From the IMG/VR virus record IMGVR_UViG_2718217716_000005: a DNA stretch of 37,433 bases; one strand, written 5' to 3'. This stretch comes from a virus. Taxonomy: Duplodnaviria > Heunggongvirae > Uroviricota > Caudoviricetes. Under the pieces are notes generated by a model, which saw nothing but the letters and a program-made list of their open reading frames with translations, made no database searches and was not told where the DNA came from. The position numbers and the translations under genes are program-made. This document shows positions 893-37,200 of this stretch, in pieces. The first letter of the stretch is position 1. Each line of letters opens with the position of its first letter.

Positions 893-1149
893 GGCCGCAT
901 AACCTCCTGCTTTGTTGTTGATATCTTTATCACTCAATCGATCGACAAAAACGATCGATTTGATTTATTTAATTGATACAACAAATAACACGAAATGTCA
1001 TTAGCGAAAATTTATGAGTTTGATCACTAATTTTAAAAGGTGCTGTAACGCATAAGTGCTGAATAATTGTACATTTGAATGCCGCAAAGCAAAAAAAATA
1101 AACTAATTGATAAAAATCAATCAGTTAACTGCAAGCGTAAGAGGCTGTT
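893..1149. promoter_or_regulatory. AT-rich divergent control region: candidate mom-operon promoter with three GATC sites and palindromes, plus promoter of the plus-strand gene at 1150
   Basis: GATC at 940-943, 953-956, 1022-1025. Inverted repeat atcgatcg / cgatcgat around 937-959. Possible -35 TTGAAT / -10 TAAACT for the plus strand. Confidence 0.45.
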
Positions 1150-1443
1150 ATGGACAATCATGTAACGACGAGAAATCGAAAAATGATTGAAAACGCGGAG
1201 ATCTATAATGATTATTTTTCCGATTATTCAGATGTCTGCAAATACAGTTCGAGTGCGGGAGAGTTCATATGCTTCAACTTTTTTATTAAATCTTATGTTT
1301 TTCCTCCACAGAAAGAAGATGGAGGTGTGCCACCTCCTGAAATCACTTTGCACCGTATAGCCTCCGTCTCAATGATGGAGCAACAGGCTAATGAGCTGTA
1401 TAGCATTCTGGGAATGATTCTACAAAAGCGTGAATCGGACTAA
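1150..1443 (+). CDS. Hypothetical protein (97 aa), low-GC, divergent from com-mom
   Basis: ATG at 1150 preceded by TAAGAGG at 5-nt spacing. Lower GC than the phage backbone. No recognisable motif. Confidence 0.45.
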   Translation: MDNHVTTRNRKMIENAEIYNDYFSDYSDVCKYSSSAGEFICFNFFIKSYVFPPQKEDGGVPPPEITLHRIASVSMMEQQANELYSILGMILQKRESD

Positions 1444-2247: not shown

Positions 2248-4317
2248 TTACGCGTTATTCACTTCCACCACAATGCTGTCAATCAGCACCGGGTATGTTG
2301 CACCGTTAGTGATATCGGTCACGCGTAACTTGTCTGCCGTAAACGTGCCAACCGGAGACTGCGACAGCATGAATGGTGTCCCGTCCTTACCATCAATGAC
2401 CGGCGTCACCTCAATACTGTTGTTACCGGCAAAACGGAAGCCCAGCGTATGCCACTCATTATCAAATGCGCTGAATGCCCCCAGCTTCGTGTTCTGCGCC
2501 GTGTTTCCCTTGTGATACATCACGTTAAGGTCTGTGGCATCGCTCTGTACGTAGAACGACGCCAGCAGGTTATGACCGGCATTACCTTCCAGAGTAACCC
2601 CTTGTGGCAGGGCAGAAACCGGCCAGTACAGCGCCAGTGCGTACTGATTAGCCGTAAGCGCGCCATCGAGTTTAAAACGACAACTGACAAGACCACCTTT
2701 ACCCAGCAGGTCCGCACCATTACCGGCATCATGCTCAAGATACCAGGAGGATTTGCCTGTTTCCTTGGTCAGTTTCATGGCCTTACCACTACCAGCTCCG
2801 GCATCATCCACGATTTGAGCCTTACCGCCTCCGGCAGTCCAGCCCTGTGGTGCCAGCTGTCCTTCAGACTCTGATGCCCGGTAAGCAAACAGGGTGCTCA
2901 TCGTCGTGGTGTCAGCCGGTGGTGTGGACGGTGTATCCGGCGATGGTGTTGATGGCGTGTCAGGTGATGGTTTTTCATCCGGCTGTGTCACAACCGGTCC
3001 CTGCATCACTTCAGGTGTGCGTCCCGCATGGAGCAGAATGGCTGAGGCCAGACGGTCTGAAATAATGCCCCTGCGTGCCCATGAGCTGAAATGGCTGTCA
3101 CGCTGTGTCGAGACAAAACTGCCCTGGGTACGGGATGCCGCACCGTAATACCCGACAGTCACAATATCCGGGTCTTCCGCCTGAGCATTCGTTGGCGTGT
3201 TCTGTCCATTCTCATCCGTCAGGAAAGGTACAAAGAAAATATTCTGAGTTTCCTTGCCTTTGTAGCCACCGTATACCGCCTCATATTTATCGGTGCCAGC
3301 GTTTTTCCAGTAATACGTGGTATCACCACAAATCCACGGTACCGTGCCAGCATTTCCACTCACGCACTGCGCAGCAAGCGGAGACAGGTCAGTTCTGAAC
3401 TGCTGAACCATGGTCGTGAATAAACCATTATGCTGCTGACTTCCCGATGCAAGGTCTGCTTCTCCCTGCATCCAGACCACAGCCAGAAGTTTGTTTTTCG
3501 GGTTCTTCGCCAGCGCCGCTCTGGTACGGCTTACCAGGTCCTGATACAGAGGTTTACCGACTCCCCAGCGTGAAGAATCAGCGGAAGCACCGCTGGTCTC
3601 ACTGAATGAACCGTCCGCCCCGGTGGTAAATGCTGACCCACCACGGCAACAGGGCACCAGAAGAATCCCGGCATTCTGCGGGATATAAGGCAGCAGTTTT
3701 TTGGCAATATGCAGCCCCTGACCGACAGTCCCGTACTGGCCTTTTGCCAGATCAGCTTTCGGGTGGTTTATCCCGCTCATATCCTGCACATCATGCAGGC
3801 AGTGATCTGCCGGAATGATGTCGTTATATGTACACGACGTACCGTCGGGCGTGACCGTGCTGCGGCGTGCCAGTTGCTTAATCCGTGGGTCCGGGCGGTC
3901 AAATGAATCCGGTAACGGAAGCCCTTCACCATAGGCCATGCCATTTGATTGTCCCGCCAGTGGGATCACATAGTAATACTCCGGCTCTGTGGTACTGCCA
4001 TTCGTGCTGCCGGAAGGCCCGGCGTTATCCGGTGCATTCCAGTCGGAGGGCGTGAGTGTTCCGGCCACGTCAGCTGTAATCGGAATGATGCCGGTCACGC
4101 CTGAACTGGTGATTTCTGCACTGGGATTACCGGATACCGGCATTATCCATAATGGCTCTTTCGTGCTGAAGCGGATCACGCAGTCTGCGAAGGTGATCCC
4201 CCCTTTATTACCCGAAGGCCTGAAAGGACTTTCAATAAATGCCACCGTGCCACCGGCAACCTTGACTGAAAACTCTCCGGGCATGGCGGAGAGCATTTTC
4301 CACTGGGAGTCTGACAT
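2248..4317 (-). CDS. Multidomain protein: N-terminal region, SGNH/SASA-type O-acetylesterase-like domain, Pro/Thr linker, C-terminal lectin-like beta domain (689 aa)
   Basis: Motifs YVIPLAGQSNGMAYGEG (GQSN nucleophile motif), VVWMQGEAD, DSHF (Asp/His of triad); linker PSPDTPSTPSPDTPSTPP; C-terminal ~220 aa Gly/Asn/Thr-rich. Sits where Mu carries the G segment and gin. Confidence 0.7.
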   Translation of the reverse strand: MSDSQWKMLSAMPGEFSVKVAGGTVAFIESPFRPSGNKGGITFADCVIRFSTKEPLWIMPVSGNPSAEITSSGVTGIIPITADVAGTLTPSDWNAPDNAGPSGSTNGSTTEPEYYYVIPLAGQSNGMAYGEGLPLPDSFDRPDPRIKQLARRSTVTPDGTSCTYNDIIPADHCLHDVQDMSGINHPKADLAKGQYGTVGQGLHIAKKLLPYIPQNAGILLVPCCRGGSAFTTGADGSFSETSGASADSSRWGVGKPLYQDLVSRTRAALAKNPKNKLLAVVWMQGEADLASGSQQHNGLFTTMVQQFRTDLSPLAAQCVSGNAGTVPWICGDTTYYWKNAGTDKYEAVYGGYKGKETQNIFFVPFLTDENGQNTPTNAQAEDPDIVTVGYYGAASRTQGSFVSTQRDSHFSSWARRGIISDRLASAILLHAGRTPEVMQGPVVTQPDEKPSPDTPSTPSPDTPSTPPADTTTMSTLFAYRASESEGQLAPQGWTAGGGKAQIVDDAGAGSGKAMKLTKETGKSSWYLEHDAGNGADLLGKGGLVSCRFKLDGALTANQYALALYWPVSALPQGVTLEGNAGHNLLASFYVQSDATDLNVMYHKGNTAQNTKLGAFSAFDNEWHTLGFRFAGNNSIEVTPVIDGKDGTPFMLSQSPVGTFTADKLRVTDITNGATYPVLIDSIVVEVNNA

Positions 4318-4621
4318 CGTCTTTTCTGCCTGTTTCTGAATTAAACAGAGTCAGAATAACAACCGCTGATAAATATGTGTTTTGCGGAAATTCAAAAAAA
4401 GCGTCACAGTACTTTTCGTGACGGAGCCGGTGAGGCAGGAACATAACGACAAAGAATGGACAGGCCAATACGATAACCGCATATTACCGGCTTATAATTG
4501 ATTTAACGATTCATGACGCTGCGTTCAGCACCTGAAAATATGCGTTATTTCAGAAACCCCTTGCCTGTATATGGCAATAGTATTGTTCCTGTTTTTATCA
4601 TTGATTTACATGGTGATGTTT

Positions 4622-17005: not shown

Positions 17006-17421
17006 ATAAAGCCCTTCTGGTTGCGCCCGAACACCGCCGCATCAGACTGTACCTGCGGTAAGTCCCCGGATTCAGGGGCCGCACCGTCGGTATCCACGCC
17101 GACCGGCACGTTGCCGTTCATGACGTCTTTCAGCCAGGCCAGCGCCTCACGATAACGGTCACGCGCCTGTTCAGCTCCCCGTTGATCGCACAGGTAATAA
17201 AAGGCAATCGCGCAGCAGTGCTGAACAAGGACCGCCGGAACCACCGCCAGCGGCAGCGTGTAACGGGCAGACAGGTAGCTGTCGATAAGGGCAGACGCGT
17301 CCGTCAGCGCCCGGTTCAGTTTGCGCGTGTCCGGTTCATCCGAACGGGGCACGGCCAGTAATGACCTGAGCAAATCCTCGCGGTAACGCGCCCGCATATC
17401 GGTTTCGGTGGCGTAATTCAT
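17002..17421 (-). CDS. Head-tail joining protein (Mu J position)
   Basis: 139-aa ORF overlapping both neighbours. Confidence 0.55.
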   Translation of the reverse strand: MNYATETDMRARYREDLLRSLLAVPRSDEPDTRKLNRALTDASALIDSYLSARYTLPLAVVPAVLVQHCCAIAFYYLCDQRGAEQARDRYREALAWLKDVMNGNVPVGVDTDGAAPESGDLPQVQSDAAVFGRNQKGFI

Positions 17422-17831
17422 GCGCGCGCCTTTTTTTTCTGTCTGGCTTTATTGCCGGTCTTTTTCCGGGGAGCATCCTGTCCGGCTTCGGCTTCGGCTT
17501 CGGCTTCGGCTTCGGCTTCGGCTTCGGCTTCGGCTTCGGCTTCGGCTTCGGCTAAATCTGCACCGGTCGCTGCATGAACCACACCCGCCACGGCTCCCGC
17601 ATCATCACCAGGCGTCTGTAGTATTCGTACAGTGAGGCATGGCTCCGCTTCCAGTCGGGCAAGCTGTTCCGGGGTGACGTCAACCTGCTGGCGTCCCCGC
17701 ATGAACAGGAACCCCGCACGACGAAACTGCGCACGATTGCAACGCACTTCTGCCAGTACCGTGACAGGATTGTCACCACTGACCTGAAGGCCTGAGTCAT
17801 CTGTTGCTGCCACAGTGTGATGTTCATTCAT
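17418..17831 (-). CDS. Hypothetical head-region protein with internal (Glu-Ala)n repeat and basic C-terminal tail
   Basis: 137-aa ORF between the major head gene and the J-like gene. Contains AEAEAEAEAEAEAEAEAEAEAEA and ends KKTGNKARQKKKARA. Confidence 0.55.
   Translation of the reverse strand: MNEHHTVAATDDSGLQVSGDNPVTVLAEVRCNRAQFRRAGFLFMRGRQQVDVTPEQLARLEAEPCLTVRILQTPGDDAGAVAGVVHAATGADLAEAEAEAEAEAEAEAEAEAEAEAGQDAPRKKTGNKARQKKKARA
17484..17552. repeat. Perfect hexanucleotide tandem repeat (GGCTTC)x11.5, in-frame, coding (Glu-Ala)n on the minus strand
   Basis: Seen directly as ggcttc repeated without interruption for 69 nt. Confidence 0.95.
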
Positions 17832-17874: not shown

Positions 17875-18822
17875 TTACAGATAATCCGCGACAACCAGCT
17901 CCAGCTTGCCCTTCATCTCGTTAGAGACGGTGGTGTTACCGTCCGCGAACAGCTCGCGCTCCAGCAGCTGCACCGCCTGTTTTTCCAGCGAGGTGGGGAC
18001 AACAATATGGGTGGGTTTGATACCGAGTTTGCGGCCACCGTCAGCCTTAAAGTCACGCATGGCTGACCAGCCGTGCCACAACGCATCCAGCGTCAGCGGT
18101 GACTGCATCATGTAGGCCATCTGCCAGAAGCCGTAGCCCACATTGCGACGGGCGGAAGCACCGAACACAAACTCGTTATCAGTAAACGCACGGCCTTCAT
18201 CGACTTTTGTCTGGGCAACCAGTTCGGCCTTGCGGCGATCCTGGTAAATCAGCGGTTTTACCGCGCGGGAGCAGTCAAGCAGATACCAGGCCGGGCCGCT
18301 GTAATCCGCCTGTGCACCGACAGAGCCGGTTTTTGCCACAAACATATTGCTGACCATCTGTGCATCACCGGAGCCATCCACTTTGGGGTAAACAGGGTGT
18401 TCGATATCAAAGAAGTTCTGGCCGTCATAGCAGGCCGCATTCAGACCATCACGCAGTGCAGCAAAGACCAGTTCATCCGGTTGTGCCGCCGCAGCGCGCC
18501 CCATCTCCTGGAACAACGGGGAGTAGATGCCAAGATTGTCGTCTTCAAAGTCATCGCGGCTAATGGCAACGGTGCCTTCAAAGGTTTTGTTCACGATGGC
18601 GTAGCCATAGGCTTTCATCTTCTCGATGACGCGGGAGCCGATCCACTCACGGAACTGCGGGAACTGCCCCAGCCAGCCGTAGGTGTTGGATTTCGACGTG
18701 GACGGTACGGTCATCGCAATTTTCTGGTACTGCGACGGAGCCATGGACATCCCGGCCTGAAAATCAGAACGGTAGCCCGTCATCAGGGCGGTGATCATCG
18801 CCGGTGTAATCGGGGTAGGCAT
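17875..18822 (-). CDS. Major head (capsid) protein (Mu T-like)
   Basis: 315-aa ORF immediately downstream of the protease/scaffold gene; followed by a GC-rich hairpin at 17840-17865. Confidence 0.8.
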   Translation of the reverse strand: MPTPITPAMITALMTGYRSDFQAGMSMAPSQYQKIAMTVPSTSKSNTYGWLGQFPQFREWIGSRVIEKMKAYGYAIVNKTFEGTVAISRDDFEDDNLGIYSPLFQEMGRAAAAQPDELVFAALRDGLNAACYDGQNFFDIEHPVYPKVDGSGDAQMVSNMFVAKTGSVGAQADYSGPAWYLLDCSRAVKPLIYQDRRKAELVAQTKVDEGRAFTDNEFVFGASARRNVGYGFWQMAYMMQSPLTLDALWHGWSAMRDFKADGGRKLGIKPTHIVVPTSLEKQAVQLLERELFADGNTTVSNEMKGKLELVVADYL

Positions 18823-19946
18823 TATTGCATTTCCTCTTTCATTTTCAGGAACTCGGCTTCGGTTTTACCCAGCAGATGGGCGGCGGCGATATCTTCAGCC
18901 GACAGCACAGCGGTGGCGGTCTTTTTATCCGGCACGGTCACGGTGTCGGTCTGAAGAGTGGTCAGAGCCGCAACCGGCTGGCGGGCGTCAAGCTGTGCAG
19001 AAAGTGCCGCAACACCAATCTGTTGTCCGAGTCCTTCCATGTATCCGCGTTCGCTTTTGAAAATGCGTCCTTCGGACTCGGCCTTATCCAGCAACTGCTC
19101 CAGCGTGGTGCTGCCGTGTTGTGCCGACAACGCGACATATTCGGTACGCAGGGCGTTATACGTCTCAACGGGCACGTATTTCGTCAGATCAATAGTGCCG
19201 CCAGTTGGTGTGCCTTTTGCGGTTTCCAGCTCTGCCGACAGGCTGGCAACCTGTGTTTTCAGGGTGTCGTGCGCATCCGCACGGGTTTTGATCCCGGTAA
19301 GGGCAGACAGCGCCGCCGTGCCCAGTTCCGGCGTAAATTCGTCACCGTCAGCCACGGTCAGACCGAGCGCCGTCAGCAACTGGCGTAATTGCTCATTCAT
19401 GGAGGTGTCCTTTAAAGGAGGGTTTAAGGCGTTATAAAGGTCATCCGCCGACAGTGCGGCGACAGGATTCATGCCAGTCAGACCGGGGTCACCGGTAATA
19501 GCCAGCATCCGGAGCTCAACAGGTTCACCGGTGATTTCGTCATAACTAATCACCGGGGAAAACCAGGGAAATTCGTTATTGCGCAGGTGTTCAATGGCCG
19601 GAGGGTTCCAGTCCGGACGCACTTCAAAACCACGCTCTTCACTGAAACGGAAGTTCTCCGGCGAGGCCATGACAAAACCGGCAGCCGGTGCCGCATGCCC
19701 CTCAATCAGGGTCTGGTGGTTGTAGTCAATCTTCACCGGCTGATTGAGCGCCACAACCCGGGATACCATGCGCCCAACGGTCGCACGGTTAATCAGCCAG
19801 CCTTCAGCCGGTTTTTCCGGGCGACCGTCACGGGCCTTTACCCGACCGGCTGGCATGATCTGACACCAGTCACCGTCCCCGTCTGCGGACAGGCTGATGG
19901 CATTCAGAATGGCATAAGCAAGTTTGGGCGTGTTTTTCGTCTTCAT
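18822..19946 (-). CDS. Head maturation protease / scaffold (Mu I-like)
   Basis: 374-aa ORF; ATG overlaps the downstream capsid gene start. Confidence 0.75.
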   Translation of the reverse strand: MKTKNTPKLAYAILNAISLSADGDGDWCQIMPAGRVKARDGRPEKPAEGWLINRATVGRMVSRVVALNQPVKIDYNHQTLIEGHAAPAAGFVMASPENFRFSEERGFEVRPDWNPPAIEHLRNNEFPWFSPVISYDEITGEPVELRMLAITGDPGLTGMNPVAALSADDLYNALNPPLKDTSMNEQLRQLLTALGLTVADGDEFTPELGTAALSALTGIKTRADAHDTLKTQVASLSAELETAKGTPTGGTIDLTKYVPVETYNALRTEYVALSAQHGSTTLEQLLDKAESEGRIFKSERGYMEGLGQQIGVAALSAQLDARQPVAALTTLQTDTVTVPDKKTATAVLSAEDIAAAHLLGKTEAEFLKMKEEMQ

Positions 19947-20123
19947 TCCGGCAGCATAAGCCGGTGTTTTTCAGGGCAGGTTTTGCGGGACTTCAGAAAG
20001 TGCTGACAGGGGAAAAATGAGAAAGGCGCTTCACGCAGATTTTAAAGCCCGTTAAATACAGGTTAGAAAATCACGACACGCGCCTGAAGAGGGTAAGGTA
20101 ATGTATTTGTATACCTTAAACCA
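19947..20123. promoter_or_regulatory. G-I intergenic region: candidate late promoter and candidate central strong gyrase site
   Basis: 177-bp non-coding gap at the genome centre between G-like and I-like genes, where Mu has P_I and its strong gyrase site. Contains hairpins (ccggc-agcataa-gccgg + T5; taaggta...tacctta). No motif-level confirmation. Confidence 0.35.
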
Positions 20124-20597
20124 TTACGGCGTTTCTGTAGCCTTTTTAAAGCGTTTTCTGATTTCGTCCATGATCTCCTGTTCTGCCACCTGATCAAAGC
20201 CCATATACGGACGCGCACCAATGGCTGCTGGTCCCGGTGGCATACCGGGCAGGCCACCCCACTGATGAATGGCCGCATAAGGCTCATTTGATCCAATCAG
20301 CGCCCAGGTATCGCCATAATCCGTGGTCAGGCGGCGGGCCAGATCGCCGTTCAGCGTCAGGATTTTGCCGGGCGTGTATCCCTTACGGGTACGCCACTTG
20401 CGGTAAGGATCTGACCAGTCATGCCAGCGTTCACCATCCGGCTCTTTTTCCTGTTCAAACGCCATTTCTGACGATGACAGAAGACTCTCCGCCACACTGC
20501 GGGCCAGGTCTTTTCCGCCGCCCACAAACTGAAGCCGGGCAAACACCCGCTGGAGACGCGTAACGTCAACAACGACAGCGGCATCAATGGATGACAT
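20124..20597 (-). CDS. Virion morphogenesis protein (Mu G-like)
   Basis: 157-aa ORF, size and position as Mu G. Confidence 0.65.
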   Translation of the reverse strand: MSSIDAAVVVDVTRLQRVFARLQFVGGGKDLARSVAESLLSSSEMAFEQEKEPDGERWHDWSDPYRKWRTRKGYTPGKILTLNGDLARRLTTDYGDTWALIGSNEPYAAIHQWGGLPGMPPGPAAIGARPYMGFDQVAEQEIMDEIRKRFKKATETP

Positions 20598-20718
20598 ATT
20601 GCCTCCGCATAAAGGATGAATATAAAATAAACAGGCGGTCAGTGTACGCTTAACTGGTAAAGTCGGTGCCTGCCTCCGGGTGGATCATGTATGCGGGTTC
20701 GACCCCCGCCACTGACCG

Positions 20719-22050
20719 TTAATCAATTTGTCCTTCCAGCACCTCAAGCATTCCGCCCCGGATATCCGATTTCAGCTTATCCATATTGATAACCCGGTAA
20801 GCATTCACAATCACATCCAGTTTGTCGGGCTGACGTTTCAGACTGTACGGTGCATTAACGGCAATCTGCACACTGCCATCCTTATTTTCCACGATATACA
20901 TCAGATTGTTGTGCCGTTTGTCCCACAGCACCGCTTTTGGCTTTGCCAGCATTGCCGGTAAGCGCCCGAAGTCCTCTGGCATCAGGGCGATGCCGTCATT
21001 CTGATGTTTCACACTGTCTGCATGGAGCACATTTTTACCGCTCATCGCCAGCAGGCGGGCCGGTGGCGTTCCCGTCCGGCTTTCCACTGCCTGCGCAATG
21101 CTTTCAGTCATAAAGCCCAGCGTGCGGATATCGTTACCACCTCGCCGGGTCTGCATGATGTTTTTTGCCCAGATGCGGAACGCCAGCTGCCGCTCCGGGC
21201 TGTTGTTCATCTCCTGAACCACCATTTCCCGTAACGCCGGGCTTTTCACCTCGATCAGTTTGCGGATCAGCGCCTGGTCTGTGCCGAACGCTGCCGAGCC
21301 GGGGTTATATGACCAGCCCACATCCGGTGTCATGGTTCTGGTGCCATCTGAATATGTGGTCACCGGCATTTCTCTGACTTCTCCGGTCTGTTTATCCACG
21401 CCAGCCTCAACATTGCGGGTGGAGAGATGATCCTCACCGGATGAAACGGATAACCCCATTGCATCCAGACGGGCCTGAGACAATGGTCGCACACGGCAGC
21501 GGCAGTTCCAGCCATTGGGCGGGTAGTGTGTTTTCCAGAACGGATCATCATAGCGGAATACCAGCCCGTTAAGGGCGGAATGCGCCGGGCGGGTGCGGCT
21601 GTCCATGACCGCCACATACTGCCAGAACGGATGCGTGTCCGTGTTGTTCATCATCTGCGTGTAACGCCCGGCATTGTAAGCCACACGGGTGTTCACGTTG
21701 TAAATCAGCGCCAGACGACGGGGACTGCCCAGTTGCACTTCTTCCGCGTTACCGTCGCTGTCCACCACAATCTGCTTTCCCCACCATCCCAGCTTTTGCA
21801 GTCGGGGTGTCAGCGTGCGGATAAATGCTTTCTGTGAAATGCCCTCATCAACAGCACGCAGCACTTCCGCCTGTAGTGTGGTCAGTACGTCCAGCCGTGC
21901 CACTTTTGCTGCCGTGAATGAGCGGGCGTGCACATCCGCGTCTGTTTCGAACCAGTTCCAGCTGATATGCGCTCCTTTGGCGCGGAAGTATGCCACCGCC
22001 TCTTTTGAGGGAAGCGTGGCGGCATAACCTAAATCAATCCCCTGAGCCAT
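20719..22050 (-). CDS. Head morphogenesis / minor head protein (Mu F-like)
   Basis: 443-aa ORF downstream of the portal gene with overlapping start. Confidence 0.75.
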   Translation of the reverse strand: MAQGIDLGYAATLPSKEAVAYFRAKGAHISWNWFETDADVHARSFTAAKVARLDVLTTLQAEVLRAVDEGISQKAFIRTLTPRLQKLGWWGKQIVVDSDGNAEEVQLGSPRRLALIYNVNTRVAYNAGRYTQMMNNTDTHPFWQYVAVMDSRTRPAHSALNGLVFRYDDPFWKTHYPPNGWNCRCRVRPLSQARLDAMGLSVSSGEDHLSTRNVEAGVDKQTGEVREMPVTTYSDGTRTMTPDVGWSYNPGSAAFGTDQALIRKLIEVKSPALREMVVQEMNNSPERQLAFRIWAKNIMQTRRGGNDIRTLGFMTESIAQAVESRTGTPPARLLAMSGKNVLHADSVKHQNDGIALMPEDFGRLPAMLAKPKAVLWDKRHNNLMYIVENKDGSVQIAVNAPYSLKRQPDKLDVIVNAYRVINMDKLKSDIRGGMLEVLEGQID

Positions 22051-27608: not shown

Positions 27609-28109
27609 TCAGACTTTCGGCAAATCGTAGCGACATAACCATTCATCCGCCGAACGGCGGGCCTCAAGGCCGGGGAGTTTTACCCCCTTTGAATAAATCC
27701 AGCGGATATACTGCTTACAGGACGCGGGCATCTGCCCGGCATTGATAAGGCGCAGGAGCGTGGAGTTGCGAAAGTTCGTTTCACCGGCCCAGAAAATCCA
27801 GGAGGCCAGCGCCACCGTCTGACCACGGGTAAGCGGCACCTGAACATGACGATCGATAGCCGCAAAGGCCCATTTCATGTCCTTTTCCAGCAGCTCCAGA
27901 CACTCTTCATCAGTTTTTGTCATACCCGGTTTCACATCCGGGCCGGTATGGCCGTAACAGATGGTGGGGGTGCCGGTGGGATCAATGTACGTGGTGTTTT
28001 CTTTCCCTTCCCAGTAGCCGGTGTAGTGCGTGGCAATGGTGAACGTCCCGGCTCCGGCCAGAACAAGGGCAATCAGCTTTTTACGCAGGGGTGCGGGGAG
28101 TTTTGGCAT
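27609..28109 (-). CDS. Endolysin, lysozyme-like with SAR-type N-terminal signal-anchor
   Basis: N-terminus KKLIALVLAGAGTFTIA is a Gly/Ala-rich weak transmembrane segment. Catalytic-region pattern E-x8-D-x5-T (YWEGK...DPTG.PTICYGHTG). Confidence 0.75.
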   Translation of the reverse strand: MPKLPAPLRKKLIALVLAGAGTFTIATHYTGYWEGKENTTYIDPTGTPTICYGHTGPDVKPGMTKTDEECLELLEKDMKWAFAAIDRHVQVPLTRGQTVALASWIFWAGETNFRNSTLLRLINAGQMPASCKQYIRWIYSKGVKLPGLEARRSADEWLCRYDLPKV

Positions 28110-28110
28110 T

Positions 28111-28148
28111 GTTACGCTGTCTCATGGTGTTCTCTGAGTCAGCGTAAC
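28111..28148. promoter_or_regulatory. Perfect 9-bp inverted repeat (gttacgctg ... cagcgtaac, 20-nt spacer) immediately upstream of the endolysin start codon
   Basis: Seen directly; the 3' arm ends 1 nt before the lys ATG on the minus strand. Confidence 0.5.
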
Positions 28149-28180
28149 CGTGGGAAAAAGTGGGCAGGATTTGCGGAATA

Positions 28181-28603
28181 TCAGAAAAGCCGGGGCTGCG
28201 TGCGTTCCTGATGCAGGCGGCGCTGGGTGCGGATAACGGAGTAAATCTGCGTCTCTGACATCTGGTAGTGGCGGCGCAGGGTTTCAATTTTTTCGCCCTG
28301 GCTCCAGCGGGAAAAAATTTCATTATTGCGCAGTTCGGTGAAAAGGGATTCACCGACCGGGAGATAATAACCACGCCCGCCCATGTACCCGGCCTGTGCG
28401 GCCGCAACTTTACGGGCAAGCATTCCCGCCTGAGCAGATTCAATCCCCTGACGGTGCAGTTCAGCACTGATCACATCAACCAGGTCCCGCAGCGTGCCGG
28501 GCCAGTTCTTTTTCAGCTCATCATCAGGAATGTCATCCAGACGGTCAATCAGCGCGTGCAGCTGTTCGCTGTCACCAAACATGCTCATCTGTGTTTCAGC
28601 CAT
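28181..28603 (-). CDS. Mor/C-family transcriptional activator (140 aa), the only member in the window
   Basis: Size and position directly upstream of lys. C-terminal helix-turn-helix-like IETLRRHYQMSETQIYSVIRTQRR, GGAGG ribosome-binding site. Confidence 0.7.
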   Translation of the reverse strand: MAETQMSMFGDSEQLHALIDRLDDIPDDELKKNWPGTLRDLVDVISAELHRQGIESAQAGMLARKVAAAQAGYMGGRGYYLPVGESLFTELRNNEIFSRWSQGEKIETLRRHYQMSETQIYSVIRTQRRLHQERTQPRLF

Positions 28604-28645
28604 ACCCGCCTCCGGTCATCATTACACAGGGCAAGTTTAAAATAA

Positions 28646-28669
28646 AAATCCCGCGCTGTGGCGGGATTT
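28646..28669. terminator. Hairpin aaatcccgc-gctgtg-gcgggattt (bidirectional terminator-like), left copy of a ~35-bp direct repeat
   Basis: 9-bp perfect stem flanked by A-run and T-run. Near-identical copy at 29291-29314. Confidence 0.6.
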
Positions 28670-28942
28670 AGGAATGTAACGAATAAACGAGCTTAACAAT
28701 ACCTGGACAAATATTGATCAGTTAATCGTGTAAGTGTATGATAAATATCATTTATTTATTCTTCTGAATATACCGATTGTTTTTTTACCACTGATGAGAT
28801 CATCACTGGTATATGCGAGCTGGTTGTCTTTAATTATCAAACATGCTTTGCCGTAAAAAAGCATGGAAAAAGACATAAAAACTAACGCTCTGAAGATAAC
28901 AAACCGTTCCTTTAACGTTTTTTTATACAGGACTATGTTCAT

Positions 28943-29284
28943 ATGACTTTTGGCCCCATCATTGAGTTTGAATCAGGCTATACCGATGACATGTACCAGT
29001 CCCTGCAGGATAATGGTATCAGATACACCCCTATTGCAGCTTTATCATACAATGTAACCGAAATGGTTGAGTTGCTCCATGCGGTTAACACGCCAGAAAC
29101 ATGGGCCGCTATTGTTCTCATCGTAAAAAAATGGATAAACCGACACAAGGATGCCAGTGTTGAATTAACCATGAATGAGAACGGGCAACTGACATCCGTA
29201 AAAATAAACGGCTACAACGTAAATGATCTGGATAAGCTTGGAGTACCCAGTTTGATTCGAGCTTCTTTTAAATCAGAGGAGTAA
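28943..29284 (+). CDS. Hypothetical protein (113 aa), opposite-strand low-GC insertion between GemA and the Mor/C activator
   Basis: ATG at 28943 after a very AT-rich 270-bp leader, followed immediately by a terminator hairpin. No recognisable motif. Confidence 0.6.
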   Translation: MTFGPIIEFESGYTDDMYQSLQDNGIRYTPIAALSYNVTEMVELLHAVNTPETWAAIVLIVKKWINRHKDASVELTMNENGQLTSVKINGYNVNDLDKLGVPSLIRASFKSEE

Positions 29285-29290
29285 AATAAG

Positions 29291-29314
29291 AAATCCCGCA
29301 CTGTGGCGGGATTT
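29291..29314. terminator. Hairpin aaatcccgc-actgtg-gcgggattt, right copy of the direct repeat
   Basis: Sits between the stop of the plus-strand gene (29284) and the stop of gemA (29318). Confidence 0.6.
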
Positions 29315-29317
29315 GGG

Positions 29318-33880: not shown

Positions 33881-34108
33881 TTAGCTGACTTGTTTTGCAC
33901 CAACAGAACGGCATATTCCACTGTAAACCTCTGTCGCACCTTCGCGATCAAGTCCGGCAGATATCACCATTCGCGTGCGGTCATTAAATTCAAAAAGTAA
34001 ATCGCCACATTCTTTATTTTCGGCCAGTGAAATCACTTTCACGTTATCGAAATTAACCAGGTAAAAGCGTCCGTAGATATCAGGAATATTAAATGCAGCC
34101 ATAATCAC
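33881..34108 (-). CDS. Small early protein immediately after B (Mu kil position)
   Basis: 75-aa ORF whose ATG overlaps the B stop; size and position as Mu kil, no sequence-level confirmation. Confidence 0.4.
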   Translation of the reverse strand: MIMAAFNIPDIYGRFYLVNFDNVKVISLAENKECGDLLFEFNDRTRMVISAGLDREGATEVYSGICRSVGAKQVS

Positions 34109-35037
34109 ACCTGTGAGAGTAATTCAGGGTTGGTATAAACCTCTTTAAAGGCCGCATTAATATGTTTTTCTGTCAGCGCGGCACCTTCACCGCTGGCGGT
34201 GATCCACGCCTGGTTAAGCGTATGTGTCAGAACGCGTAAGGCTCCCGGCTTTTCAGCGATAGCCTGCATGACAGCCAGCTCGGCCTCACCACTAATCCCC
34301 CATGCCCTGGCAATAGCCAGCACATCCGCCTTTTTGGCCTTGCGAAGTTGTTTTGTACGGGCAAGACGGCTGAACAGGCGCGATAAATCATCAACGGTGC
34401 GGCGTCCACCCTTAAACAGTCCGCGCGGGTTACCAATAAGCACCATCCCGATCCCCGTGGCGTCCTGGATTGCACGCAGTTGTTCCAGACCGTCAATACC
34501 AAGATGATCCGCCTCATCAACAATCACCAGTCCACGAGTTCCCATCAGGCGACGGCGGATGGCGCGGGATAACGCCCCCTTGTTCGCGCGGGTGTAATCA
34601 ATCCCCAGTTCCTCTGCCAGCTCCAGCATACACTCCGTGACGCTGGAATGCGCGGGCGACAGGGTGATCATCCAGGTGTTCGGTTGCTCCTGACAGTAAT
34701 TGCGGGCCGTGGCCGTTTTACCCACACCCGGTACGCCCACAATGACGTTAATACAGCCCATCAGGCGAACCGCCTGAAACAGCGCGCGCAGCTCCTGGAC
34801 TGTCTGCGTTTCCACAAACTGCGGCGGTTCCGGCAGTGCGCTTTGTTTATTCCAGTTCTCATACCAGGAACGCAGGGAAGCAGCCACAGCAGCGTTATCG
34901 CCTTTATATTTTCCCTTACGGAAAGCCGATAATGTGCCGTCGGAAATTCCCGCCTCTCTGGCGATGGCATACTGCGTCAGTACGCCGCCATCAATAAGTT
35001 CATCAATGGTCTTGATTACATCGTTTATATCGGTCAT
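34105..35037 (-). CDS. B: MuB-like transposition ATPase / target DNA activator
   Basis: Walker A VGVPGVGKT, DEAD-like IVDEADHL, and ...KPGALRVL... motifs matching Mu B; downstream of the transposase. Confidence 0.85.
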   Translation of the reverse strand: MTDINDVIKTIDELIDGGVLTQYAIAREAGISDGTLSAFRKGKYKGDNAAVAASLRSWYENWNKQSALPEPPQFVETQTVQELRALFQAVRLMGCINVIVGVPGVGKTATARNYCQEQPNTWMITLSPAHSSVTECMLELAEELGIDYTRANKGALSRAIRRRLMGTRGLVIVDEADHLGIDGLEQLRAIQDATGIGMVLIGNPRGLFKGGRRTVDDLSRLFSRLARTKQLRKAKKADVLAIARAWGISGEAELAVMQAIAEKPGALRVLTHTLNQAWITASGEGAALTEKHINAAFKEVYTNPELLSQV

Positions 35038-35112: not shown

Positions 35113-37200
35113 TCAGGCCAGAGGGTCATTTTCTTTTAATTTCGCTTCAAGCAGCTGCAATCCCCGCTGGAAATTACGCTCGTATTCTTCATCAGGTTCA
35201 TCCTCAGCGACCGGTTGCTGAACGGTCACTGTATTACCCACAGGGCGGTATATATTTTCCAGCCATGGCTCCTGTGGCTTGTGCTCCAGCACGTTGACAA
35301 CCTCATCCTCGGCATCACGGATTTTTTCCTCTGCGCGTTTACGCATACCTTTAAGGCGCTGCTGCTGTTTGTAGTATTCCGCGCTGACCGGGAAGGCTTC
35401 GCGTTTATTGCCGTCCCATACCGCCTCGCAAATCACGCTGCCATCCGGGCGACGCACGGTAATTCGTTCGGCATCATGAATGTCATAGCTGATAAGCACT
35501 TTGCGGCCATGTTCATCACGCAGCTCGGGCGCGTAGTAAATATTATTCAGCCAGCGTATTTCACAGCGTCTTACAGGGCGTTCCACCATCGGCCGGAACA
35601 TGTCCCGCAGTTCAACATCGGACAGCCATTCAATTTCCGTGTCCTCTTCCGCCAGGCGTTTTTTTCTGAACTCCGCCGGGCTGTAATGTTTGCCGTTCGG
35701 CTTCATGGGTAATTCATCGTGCGGCCGGCTGTTGTACCACTCAACGCCGTCACGAATGGCATCAATCAGTTCAGACCAGGACGGTAAATCACGCATCGCT
35801 GACTGCTGCCGGGCGTTCAGCCGCTTGCCCTGTTGCAGGGCAGTGAATGCCGAGCGTAAATCGCGGTTGGTTTTACGTAACGTCTCGCGATCTGCACCTT
35901 TCCCGAAATAGGTGCGGTATTTACGGGCTATGCGCATCGGTAATGTGCGGTTAAGCCGTTCGATAATGCCCCGTCCCTGCGGGTTACCGGCAATCCCTGT
36001 CGGGTGATTAATCCCCAGTCGTGGCAGGATCCCCACAATCTCCTTATCCAGGATGTCGGCGGTTTCCCCGGAGCCATTATCCGAGTAATACAGAAACGGT
36101 TTGCCGTGATGGCGAATACCGTGCTGTATGGCACCGGCTACGGCGAAAACATTTTCAGCCAGGTCAAGGCTCCAGCCCACCACAAAGCGCGTGCCACCGT
36201 CGATAACAAAGGTCACTTCCGGTGCAAATGGCCGCCCGTGAACCGGGTGCGTGCATTTCAGCTTCATGCCGTGACCGTCACCAATCCAGACATAATTCAC
36301 CGGCATTTTTGACCAGTCGCGGCGCGTGAACCCCTCAAGCTGGCGGTATTCACTGCCGGTCACCCGGCCTTTTTGTTTCACCACTTCCGGCAGCTTCTTC
36401 ATTGCGCGGCGAATGGTGTCATAAGACGGCATGATATCGAGCATATAAGGCTCATCAGCGTGCCGCTGCTGCCATTCAGCAACAAAATCCTCGTAAGCCT
36501 CGGTCATTGGTCGGCCGTTTGACTGGCGATACTGCGCCAGAAACTCGGGGAGCCAGTTAATATCTTCGGCTTTTATTTCCTGACGTTTACCCGGTGCCAG
36601 TAAAAGAAGGCGTTCAGCGGCGTTCTGCGCCTTGTTAAAGGCCGCAATCCAGCGTTTCAGCGTGATTTCACTCAACGCGCGGCGGTTTCCCTTTTTGGCG
36701 TTCGCCGTCTCAACCATTGCCACAATGCGCTCGTCCAGTTGTGAGCGTGACAGGCGGTCAACGATAAAACGGATGGCTTTAGCGCAGTTGAAACCGGGTT
36801 GTTGCGCGAATTTCAGCACCTCGCTGACAATCGCAATTCGTGCTTCAGCCACCTGGCGCTGTTTTTCTGTCAGGGCATTGAGGCGTTCGACCATCAGTTG
36901 GGGTGAACCGCGATATGCCTCCACCGCATCAACCACGTCAGGTGAGCGTCTGGCCTTTGTCACCACCGGAGCCGGTGATTCGTCGGCTTTTTGCGTCATC
37001 AGTTGCAGGGCGTAGCGTTCACGTAAAGCCTGCTGCGTTACTTCAGGTAAACAGTCGATGCTGTATTCAAAACCTTTACAGCCTTTCTGGCGGCGTCTGC
37101 TGGTTTCGCTGGTTGCATACTTCCTGATTGAATAGCGGACGCCTTGCTCCGTTCCGGGCATTCCCGGTAATCCAACCAGCTCTTTAACTGAAGCAAACAT
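35113..37200 (-). CDS. A: Mu-type DDE transposase A
   Basis: 695-aa protein with N-terminal DNA-binding region, central DDE core (...WIGDGHGMK...YYSDNGSGE...), and C-terminal ...ISYDIHDAERITVRRPDGSVICEAVWDGNKRE... resembling the MuA C-terminus. Confidence 0.9.
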   Translation of the reverse strand: MFASVKELVGLPGMPGTEQGVRYSIRKYATSETSRRRQKGCKGFEYSIDCLPEVTQQALRERYALQLMTQKADESPAPVVTKARRSPDVVDAVEAYRGSPQLMVERLNALTEKQRQVAEARIAIVSEVLKFAQQPGFNCAKAIRFIVDRLSRSQLDERIVAMVETANAKKGNRRALSEITLKRWIAAFNKAQNAAERLLLLAPGKRQEIKAEDINWLPEFLAQYRQSNGRPMTEAYEDFVAEWQQRHADEPYMLDIMPSYDTIRRAMKKLPEVVKQKGRVTGSEYRQLEGFTRRDWSKMPVNYVWIGDGHGMKLKCTHPVHGRPFAPEVTFVIDGGTRFVVGWSLDLAENVFAVAGAIQHGIRHHGKPFLYYSDNGSGETADILDKEIVGILPRLGINHPTGIAGNPQGRGIIERLNRTLPMRIARKYRTYFGKGADRETLRKTNRDLRSAFTALQQGKRLNARQQSAMRDLPSWSELIDAIRDGVEWYNSRPHDELPMKPNGKHYSPAEFRKKRLAEEDTEIEWLSDVELRDMFRPMVERPVRRCEIRWLNNIYYAPELRDEHGRKVLISYDIHDAERITVRRPDGSVICEAVWDGNKREAFPVSAEYYKQQQRLKGMRKRAEEKIRDAEDEVVNVLEHKPQEPWLENIYRPVGNTVTVQQPVAEDEPDEEYERNFQRGLQLLEAKLKENDPLA

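Follow-up and report, generated by a model that had tools for sequence, protein, structure and literature searches.

The 177-nt gap between the G-like and I-like genes of this prophage is very probably a composite element of Mu-lineage inheritance, made up of a central strong gyrase site (SGS), a terminator-like hairpin and a C-type late promoter, P_I. This arrangement is already known from Mu and from the prophage Sp18 of E. coli O157:H7 Sakai. The reading draws on the anatomy, homology, conservation and motif statistics of the gap, all of which were observed directly. The chief doubt comes from the Sp18-like clade, to which the sequence belongs and which has the weakest match to the gyrase motif among the Mu-like clades examined. 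The window referred to below is the whole stretch of DNA that was analysed, 37,433 nt in length.

The original prediction had placed a 177-bp interval free of open reading frames between G-like and I-like genes, close to the midpoint of the prophage. Its coordinates proved exact, and Pfam matches supported both flanking genes. The setting is as follows:

19947..20123: G-I gap, exactly 177 nt
20124..20597, minus strand: G-like gene (Pfam Phage_tail_S, E 3e-34; 71% DNA identity with Mu G)
18822..19946, minus strand: I-like protease/scaffold gene (Pfam Mu-like_Pro, E 3e-74)
17875..18822, minus strand: T-like capsid gene (Pfam), next after the I-like gene
20719..22050, minus strand: F-like gene (Pfam)
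34105..35037, minus strand: MuB (Pfam)
35113..37200, minus strand: MuA (Pfam)

A search of 19947..20123 for ORFs found none of at least 20 aa contained in the gap. Three ORFs overlap it; each continues into G or I, either antisense to the gene or in another frame. An ORF insertion of the anti-CRISPR type between G and I, covered by the same search (at least 20 aa), was likewise absent, as the prediction had it, and an Rfam search of the gap matched no family. The hairpins that had been noticed in the gap were recovered by RNA folding. They comprise the inverted repeats TAAGGTA/TACCTTA and CCGGC/GCCGG, the latter short, and a long imperfect hairpin with a U tract behind it; the RNA fold z-score of the gap is just -2.0.

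The window is 100% identical to positions 966894-1004326 of E. coli M3 (NZ_CP010183). The prophage interrupts the lateral-flagellar gene flgL of this strain, one fragment ending at 966775 and the other starting at 1005326, and spans approximately 966776-1005325 (~38.55 kb). The final ~1 kb on the repressor side falls outside the window. Measured from the centre of the gap, the c/ner end is 18.4 kb and the mom end 20.15 kb away, which puts the gap at a fraction of 0.477, and the midpoint position claimed for it is approximately correct. The Mu site, at 17.88 of 36.7 kb, lies at a fraction of 0.487 (GenBank AF083977). The annotation of the same record agrees with the statement that Mu has both its gyrase site and P_I in the G-I interval, with a gyrase cut at 17879/80, a predicted terminator at 17908-17953 and P_I at 17977-18043 within a gap of 196 nt.

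Comparison with Sp18, which was located at NC_002695.2 5040971-5079729 and has a G-I gap of 176 nt, showed that both belong to the same prophage family, with amino-acid identities to the window of 97.5% for G and 95% for I. The integration sites differ, being flgL of a mouse E. coli strain for the window prophage and sorM of Sakai for Sp18. The gaps are identical at 162 of 177 positions (91.5%), and at 99 of 105 (94%) over the G-proximal SGS/terminator part. The central ~65 nt are the same in both, and the window shares the predicted cleavage register and the right arm. Several of the 15 nucleotide differences are in the promoter spacer, while G-to-A changes in the window at -2 and +5 flank the predicted overhang. 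With 91.5% identity to the Sp18 gap, the window contains an allelic form of a site on which experiments have been done. In the work of Oram and Pato of 2004, the Sakai allele reportedly showed a single strong quinolone-induced gyrase cleavage with a 4-bp stagger and enhanced processive supercoiling. Among foreign sites, that of the Mu-like prophage of O157:H7 Sakai alone could take the place of the Mu SGS (review by Toussaint and Higgins, PMC10052514).

The 130-bp gyrase motif was defined by Sutormin et al. 2018 (PMC6379681), who reported the Mu SGS as the top-scoring site of the Mu genome. A gyrase PWM was rebuilt by regressing 574 published per-site scores on the W3110 sequence with a palindromic ridge model. 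The training sites were E. coli chromosomal only, and their coordinate register was fixed by the +1G/+4C and -4G/+8C signals. The cross-validated r was 0.90 with an error of 1.2 bits; the model is approximate, since a palindromic motif is assumed and high scores are compressed by about 0.75. Three published 133-mers accordingly scored 11.0, 27.1 and 2.3, compared with published values of 14.3, 36.8 and 2.5.

As a positive control, the Mu SGS was ranked first of 36,588 Mu positions, with a score of 10.7 and the cut between 17875 and 17876. This position and the annotated cut at 17879/80 form a pair with a 4-nt stagger. The use of 17879/80 as the top-strand cut was dropped, as the PWM and the 4-nt stagger together put that cut at 17875/17876. 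Two simpler measures were discarded on the same control: both a count of base matches to the 133-nt consensus and a correlation of the G+C/A+T pattern with it left the Mu SGS outside the top sites.

Relatives were fetched from IMG/VR and GTDB; the scan of genome contigs gave three loci, and the scan of viral contigs gave the diversity. In 11 representatives outside the Sp18-like clade (Mu, L043, L053, L031, L032, L035, L041, L039, L046, L059 and L006), the top PWM score of the whole 6-8 kb locus was found 12-17 nt past the G stop, with scores at this G-I site of 8.9-12.4 and rank 1 in each. A motif trained on the chromosome that peaks at one spot after the G stop across the family is far beyond chance. 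In the Sp18-like clade (the window, Sp18, L017, L024 and L027) the best score of the gap is also at the Mu register, with values of just 5.7-6.7.

The core and the left arm of the predicted site in the window are:

20094..20118, minus strand: predicted SGS core (gyrase G-segment), with the best PWM score within the gap and the Mu-homologous register
20124..20170, minus strand: predicted SGS left arm, PWM positions -63..-17, within the 3' end of the G coding sequence

The core contains the inverted repeat TAAGGTA (20118-20112) and TACCTTA (20100-20094), which flanks the predicted cleavage. From the sequence, the minus strand would be cut between 20109 and 20108 and the plus strand between 20104 and 20105, leaving a 4-nt overhang AAAT (20108-20105). 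Written on the minus strand, the register of the window, AGGTATAC/AAAT/ACATT, corresponds to AGGCATAA/AATC/AGCC in Mu. The alternative register GGTAT/ACAA/ATACA, which fits the drug-independent -4G/-2A/+6T/+8C preference, is 2 nt off the register of the full motif and was not adopted. The left arm contributes +3.0 bits in the window and +3 to +7.5 bits across all clades examined; both arms and the core made positive contributions in every one of them.

The best in-gap score, 5.7 by the approximate PWM at the plus-strand cut 20104/20105, ranks 505 of 37,304 in the window (top 1.4%) and narrowly exceeds the 99th percentile (5.2) of 240 kb of E. coli background. About 500 positions of the window outscore it. 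On the published scale, a value of roughly 7-8 would be expected for this site. The gap is thus not singled out by the PWM score, and only its positional agreement with Mu, at about 1 in 177, is significant. Low scores of this kind would be expected if the gap were a terminator and a promoter alone, its gyrase site having decayed to an ordinary weak site in this allele or in the Sp18-like clade as a whole. The two substitutions relative to Sp18 on either side of the predicted overhang would fit such a decay. Nevertheless, the best score falls exactly at the Mu cleavage register, and the Sakai prophage site, 94% identical here, is reported to substitute for the Mu SGS (PMC10052514).

In Mu the right arm of the SGS is essential and the left arm dispensable (PMC10052514), and the T-run/A-run steps that the right arm carries at helical spacing, over ~90 bp, are described as phased anisotropic bending signals (PMC10052514; PMC13284261). 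The corresponding features of the window are:

20019..20093, minus strand: predicted SGS right arm, from phased T-run/A-run motifs, PWM and conservation
20070-20063, minus strand: right-arm T-run/A-run motif TTTTCTAA, junction +59 from the G stop
20058-20052, minus strand: right-arm T-run/A-run motif TATTTAA, junction +70 from the G stop
20046-20039, minus strand: right-arm T-run/A-run motif TTTAAAAT, junction +80 from the G stop

The three junctions of the window are spaced by 11 and 10 nt. Across at least six divergent clades, T-run/A-run junctions (TTTTAAAC, TTTTGAAC and similar) occur at +37-39, +58-59, +69-70 and sometimes +77-80, giving spacings of 20-21, 11 and 10-11 nt. The motifs at +58/59 and +69/70 are common to Mu and at least five other clades, and the window has both; the first phased motif, at +37-39, is absent from its clade. 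By analogy with Mu, the motifs of the window match the phased anisotropic bending described for the right arm there. The right arm contributes +3.2 bits to the PWM score in the window. By Fourier power, A/T periodicity places the right arm of the window in the top ~3% and that of Mu in the top 0.01%. This modest periodicity and the missing first motif would also suit a decayed site.

Nucleotide diversity was computed among 15 Sp18-like sequences. It is 0.094 at third-codon positions of G and 0.089 over gap positions 1-35, where the variable positions cluster round the predicted cut. Over positions 36-105 it falls to 0.021, 4.5-fold below the third-codon positions of G, and it reaches 0.205 in the T-rich spacer (positions 106-127). 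Sub-regions of the gap are under purifying selection.

The conserved block coincides with a hairpin, and if the gyrase site had decayed these 70 nt would have been kept for termination alone. The feature concerned is:

20013..20084, minus strand: terminator-like element at the predicted end of the lys-to-G late transcript, from the RNA fold

The RNA fold shows gap positions 40-99 as a long imperfect hairpin with a GGCGC/GCGCC base, followed by UUUCUCAUUUUU. GGCGCG (20084-20079) and AGCGCC (20030-20025) pair with each other, a CCUGU/ACGGG stem lies inside them, and the U tract TTTCTCATTTTT (20024-20013) follows; the element overlaps the right arm of the SGS. A strict scan for hairpins with loops of 3-8 nt made no call. 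At the homologous place in Mu, a terminator is predicted by TransTermHP at 17908-17953 (GenBank AF083977). L031 and L032 have a canonical A-tract/stem/T-tract hairpin at the homologous place, and in these relatives it lies downstream of the phased motifs and separate from them. The bases best conserved with Mu (GTATTTAACGG) are found in the loop and top of the hairpin, not in the stem, where a terminator would leave them unconstrained. With the conservation at the top of the hairpin and the separate terminator of L031 and L032, termination alone does not explain the constraint. Decay of the gyrase site is therefore regarded as improbable.

The phased TTT(T)RAA(C) repeats might instead be sites for a sequence-specific nucleoid-associated or phage protein that organizes the centre of the prophage. 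Their orientation and sequence (T run, R, A run, C/G) are consistent across clades, beyond mere A/T richness, and an SGS alone is insufficient outside Mu DNA, with host proteins contributing to the Mu domain (Saha et al.). Nevertheless, papers on Mu treat helically spaced T-run/A-run steps as bending signals within the right arm, and a gyrase PWM trained on the chromosome gives a positive right-arm contribution in every clade. The positive contribution and the described bending signals leave a dedicated binding protein very unlikely. It also counts against such a protein that we know of none with TTT(T)RAA(C) as its recognition sequence.

A strong gyrase site in the gap, as had been proposed, is thus supported by the 91.5% identity to the Sp18 gap, the Mu-homologous cut register and the phased right-arm motifs. 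Alignment with the Mu gyrase-site core, which the original prediction had named as a check, gave the same cleavage register and a conserved right-arm block, GATTTTnTAACCnGTATTTAACGG. The likeness to the Mu SGS (Pato, Howe & Higgins 1990; Oram et al. 2006) includes the G-I position at the genome centre, the core register AGGYATAN followed by the 4 nt between the cuts, this same block, the motifs at +58/59 and +69/70, and a terminator-like hairpin overlapping the right arm. Unlike in Mu, the +37 motif is missing and an extra one is present at +80. The two gaps are just 57% identical overall, and the motif score by the approximate PWM is 5.7 in the window compared with 10.7 and rank 1 in Mu.

Plasmid (pSC101, pBR322) and chromosomal gyrase sites have the same 130-bp organization, a cleavage core with two arms that contribute to the score. 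Nevertheless, such sites are unable to replace the Mu SGS (PMC10052514). Mu-type sites differ from them in being defined by the right arm and by a central position in a transposable genome.

The second component of the original prediction, a late promoter, was supported by a 19-nt box that occurs three times in the window, by its 23-nt spacing to a -10 element and by a C orthologue encoded in the window. The features are:

19980..19998, minus strand: P_I activator box TTCTGAAGTCCCGCAAAAC, an exact match to TTNTGAWNTYCCGCAAAWC; putative site of the C-like activator
19953..19958, minus strand: P_I -10 element TATGCT, 23 nt after CGCAAA, invariant in the family
19944..19948, minus strand: predicted P_I start, from standard -10-to-start geometry
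28141..28186, minus strand: late promoter equivalent to P_lys, with box TTCTGATATTCCGCAAATC (28186-28168), 23 nt and -10 TACGCT
4353..4397, minus strand: third candidate late promoter, with box TTTTGAATTTCCGCAAAAC (4397-4379), 22 nt and -10 TATTCT
28181..28603, minus strand: C-like late activator gene (Pfam Mor family, E 6.5e-31)

Each of the three exact copies of TTNTGAWNTYCCGCAAAWC lies on the minus strand ahead of a gene; 0.07 copies would be expected even with two mismatches allowed. A longer form, TTCTGAnnTnCCGCAAAnCCTGCCC, has exactly two copies in the window (19974-19998 and 28162-28186), with none expected. The P_lys-equivalent promoter overlaps the stop codon of the C-like gene, and the lysozyme gene lies 71 nt downstream. 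The third box precedes a 689-aa ORF of the tail-fibre region (2248..4317, minus strand). No box was found in the window before the P-like gene, before com/mom in the expected orientation or within the N-like gene; the search before the P-like gene and com/mom gave just a shortened form at 1076-1088, on the other strand.

In a multi-clade alignment, the P_I box aligns with the CATAACCCC box of Mu and TATGCT with CAAACT of Mu. The 23-nt spacing from box to -10 equals that from CATAAC to the -10 in all four Mu late promoters. Across 15 family members, the -10 and all but the degenerate positions of the box are unchanged, whereas the intervening spacer varies. A sigma-70 scan of the late-gene strand of the gap found no canonical -35/-10 pair. 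These are traits of the C-dependent late promoters of Mu (P_lys, P_I, P_P and P_mom; Margolin, Rao & Howe 1989), in which a box common to several late promoters occupies the -35 region in place of a canonical -35 and a TAnnnT -10 follows at 23 nt. In the window, too, candidate promoters lie before lys and I, together with a C orthologue. The differences are a box of CCGCAAAACC in the window and CCATAACCCC in Mu, an activator just 40% identical to C, and a third box that precedes a gene of the tail-fibre region. The activator has 140 aa, the length of Mu C, and is 27% identical to Mu Mor. That the diverged box is recognized by the diverged C protein would be the natural reading. A stronger A/T-periodic patch than that of the right arm was seen at 19918-19995, over P_I and the start of I.

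The -10 of P_I ends 6 nt before the ATG of I, compared with 32 nt in Mu, and the seventh base past the hexamer is the A of that ATG (19946). L031 and L032 share this layout, with TAAGCT, 7 nt and ATG. The inverted repeat CCGGC/GCCGG (19964-19948), which adjoins the ATG of I, holds TATGCT in its loop. Judged by this geometry, the first base transcribed from P_I would be the A of the ATG of I or lie within a base or two of it, and the short distance implies a leaderless or near-leaderless I mRNA. The P_I transcript of Mu has a leader of ~25 nt. It is possible, if rather doubtful, that in the Sp18-like lineage P_I starts on that very A and yields a leaderless I mRNA from its own promoter. If so, the same repeat would form a hairpin covering the start region of I in transcripts reading through from P_lys, and the leaderless mRNA would be a lineage-specific rewiring of late-gene translation.

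A central SGS is needed in Mu for efficient end synapsis and replicative transposition (PMC10052514; PMC3820752). For the window, gyrase cleavage, the role of the right arm, the central position and end synapsis are taken from the literature on Mu and Sp18, and by the same analogy its allele would keep all SGS, terminator and promoter functions. The SGS would then comprise the G-proximal ~105 nt of the gap and the final ~45 nt of G. Host DNA gyrase would bind the core ~15 nt past the G stop, and the right arm, with T-run/A-run motifs once per helical turn, would wrap round the GyrA C-terminal domain. Processive supercoiling from the middle of the prophage would extrude a plectonemic loop with the SGS at its apex. 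This loop would pair the prophage ends, each 18-20 kb from the SGS, for transposase synapsis and efficient replicative transposition. In the RNA of the same stretch, the hairpin and U tract would end the lys-to-G late transcript. P_I would occupy the I-proximal ~50 nt of the gap, with the C-like activator bound to TTCTGAAGTCCCGCAAAAC in the -35 region and RNA polymerase starting ~7 nt past the weak -10 TATGCT, at or adjoining the ATG of I.

Several relatives are mosaic, with G 98-99% identical and I down to 69-80%, which places a mosaic boundary close to the gap. This boundary coincides with the beginning of I, and the gap moves together with G. In Mu-like phages of Pseudomonas, genes are found between G and I. 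That the gap is a non-functional spacer, a recombination joint of head-gene modules, or a hidden small gene (anti-CRISPR-like) or small RNA, as the nearby boundary and the Pseudomonas genes might suggest, is most unlikely, given a length of 174-209 nt in most sampled Mu-like loci and an architecture conserved across clades, sub-regions under purifying selection, box repetition far beyond chance, movement of the gap together with G, and the ORF (at least 20 aa) and Rfam searches of the gap.

Read as a composite of gyrase site, terminator and P_I, the gap suggests that the prophage retains the cis-acting equipment of an active transposable phage, which is relevant to judgements of inducibility and of little importance beyond annotation. 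The peak of a chromosome-trained gyrase motif just past the G stop in divergent Mu-like phages offers a cheap means of annotating the SGS. The Sp18-like site is reported to function in Mu and yet has the weakest motif, which supports the view that score alone does not predict SGS function. Among 5426 complete E. coli genomes, the same 501-nt stretch is present in 228, with many O157:H7 strains included.

Compared with the window over 18822..20597, the Mu-like loci L025, L027-L030 and L033 are 98-99% identical through G and the G–I gap, and their I is down to 69-80% amino-acid identity. Judged by these values, the start of I is a mosaic boundary in these loci. As G and the gap are near-identical and I has diverged, the predicted region of the strong gyrase site and promoter travels with G.

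The predicted late promoter P_I occupies the I-proximal end of the gap.

19946..19964, minus strand: inverted repeat CCGGC/GCCGG with the P_I -10 (TATGCT) in its loop; the interval includes the A of the I ATG

The inverted repeat stops one base short of the I ATG, and the A of that ATG is the seventh base past the -10, a distance which suggests that the I mRNA from the predicted P_I would be leaderless. A hairpin of 5-7 bp ending 0-6 nt ahead of the I start codon is also present in most other clades, with different arm sequences; the fold z-scores of these hairpins are modest (individually -0.3 to -3.7). Strong A/T periodicity of ~11.5-12.5 nt was observed at 19918..19995, over P_I and the first I codons, within the top 0.04-0.4% of the window. 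It exceeds that of the part of the window which corresponds by homology to Mu's right arm, the I-ward flank of the gyrase site in Mu.

Additional late-promoter boxes, presumed sites of a C-like activator, were located elsewhere in the window.

4353..4397, minus strand: third exact late-promoter box, with -10, upstream of a 689-aa ORF
1076..1088, plus (opposite) strand: shortened box variant TGAATGCCGCAAA, upstream of ORF 1150..1443(+)
28109..28186, minus strand: P_lys-type promoter region, overlapping the C-like gene at its stop codon

The 689-aa ORF (2248..4317) is a DUF6645 gene of the tail-fibre region. In the P_lys-type promoter, only 15 nt separate the end of the -10 (TACGCT) from the ATG of the lysozyme gene downstream, so the mRNA predicted to start there would have a very short leader of ~8-9 nt. 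Mu carries P_P in N and P_mom before com/mom, whereas the box search of the window found none within the N-like gene and none before com/mom.

The 121-nt F–G gap contains a further element, which Mu lacks.

20638..20717, plus strand: tRNA-like element, antisense to the late genes

This element scores 31 bits with the Rfam tRNA model (gathering score 29) and is annotated by PGAP in E. coli M3 as 'tRNA-OTHER'; ARAGORN called no tRNA at this position. It has tRNA-like acceptor, D and T arms but no recognisable anticodon, because a variable hairpin of 24-30 nt stands where the anticodon arm would be. The element is kept in the Sp18-like, Edwardsiella (L006/L034), L031/L032 and L035/L041 clades, and L008 has a candidate copy by T-loop motif match only. 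Across nine distinct copies, compensatory changes occur at 10 of the 22 predicted pairs, and the G-U pairs favour the plus strand. A limited literature search found no report of a tRNA-like element of such form.

Two other intervals are of note.

28604..29317: 715-nt interval from the GemA-like to the C-like gene
~17470..17540, minus strand: 12 Glu-Ala repeats (AEAEAE...) inside ORF 17418..17831, an HI1506-related head-tail connector gene

The first has no minus-strand ORF of at least 90 aa and contains a plus-strand ORF at 28943..29284; in Sp18, the related prophage of E. coli O157:H7 Sakai, 70 nt separate the GemA-like gene from the C-like one. In the second, a hexanucleotide tandem repeat encodes the Glu-Ala run.

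The prophage interrupts the lateral-flagellar flgL of E. coli M3, with flanks at NZ_CP010183 966482..966775 and 1005326..1005979 (outside the window), whereas Sp18 sits in sorM. Differing insertion sites are as expected, since the phage is transposable.
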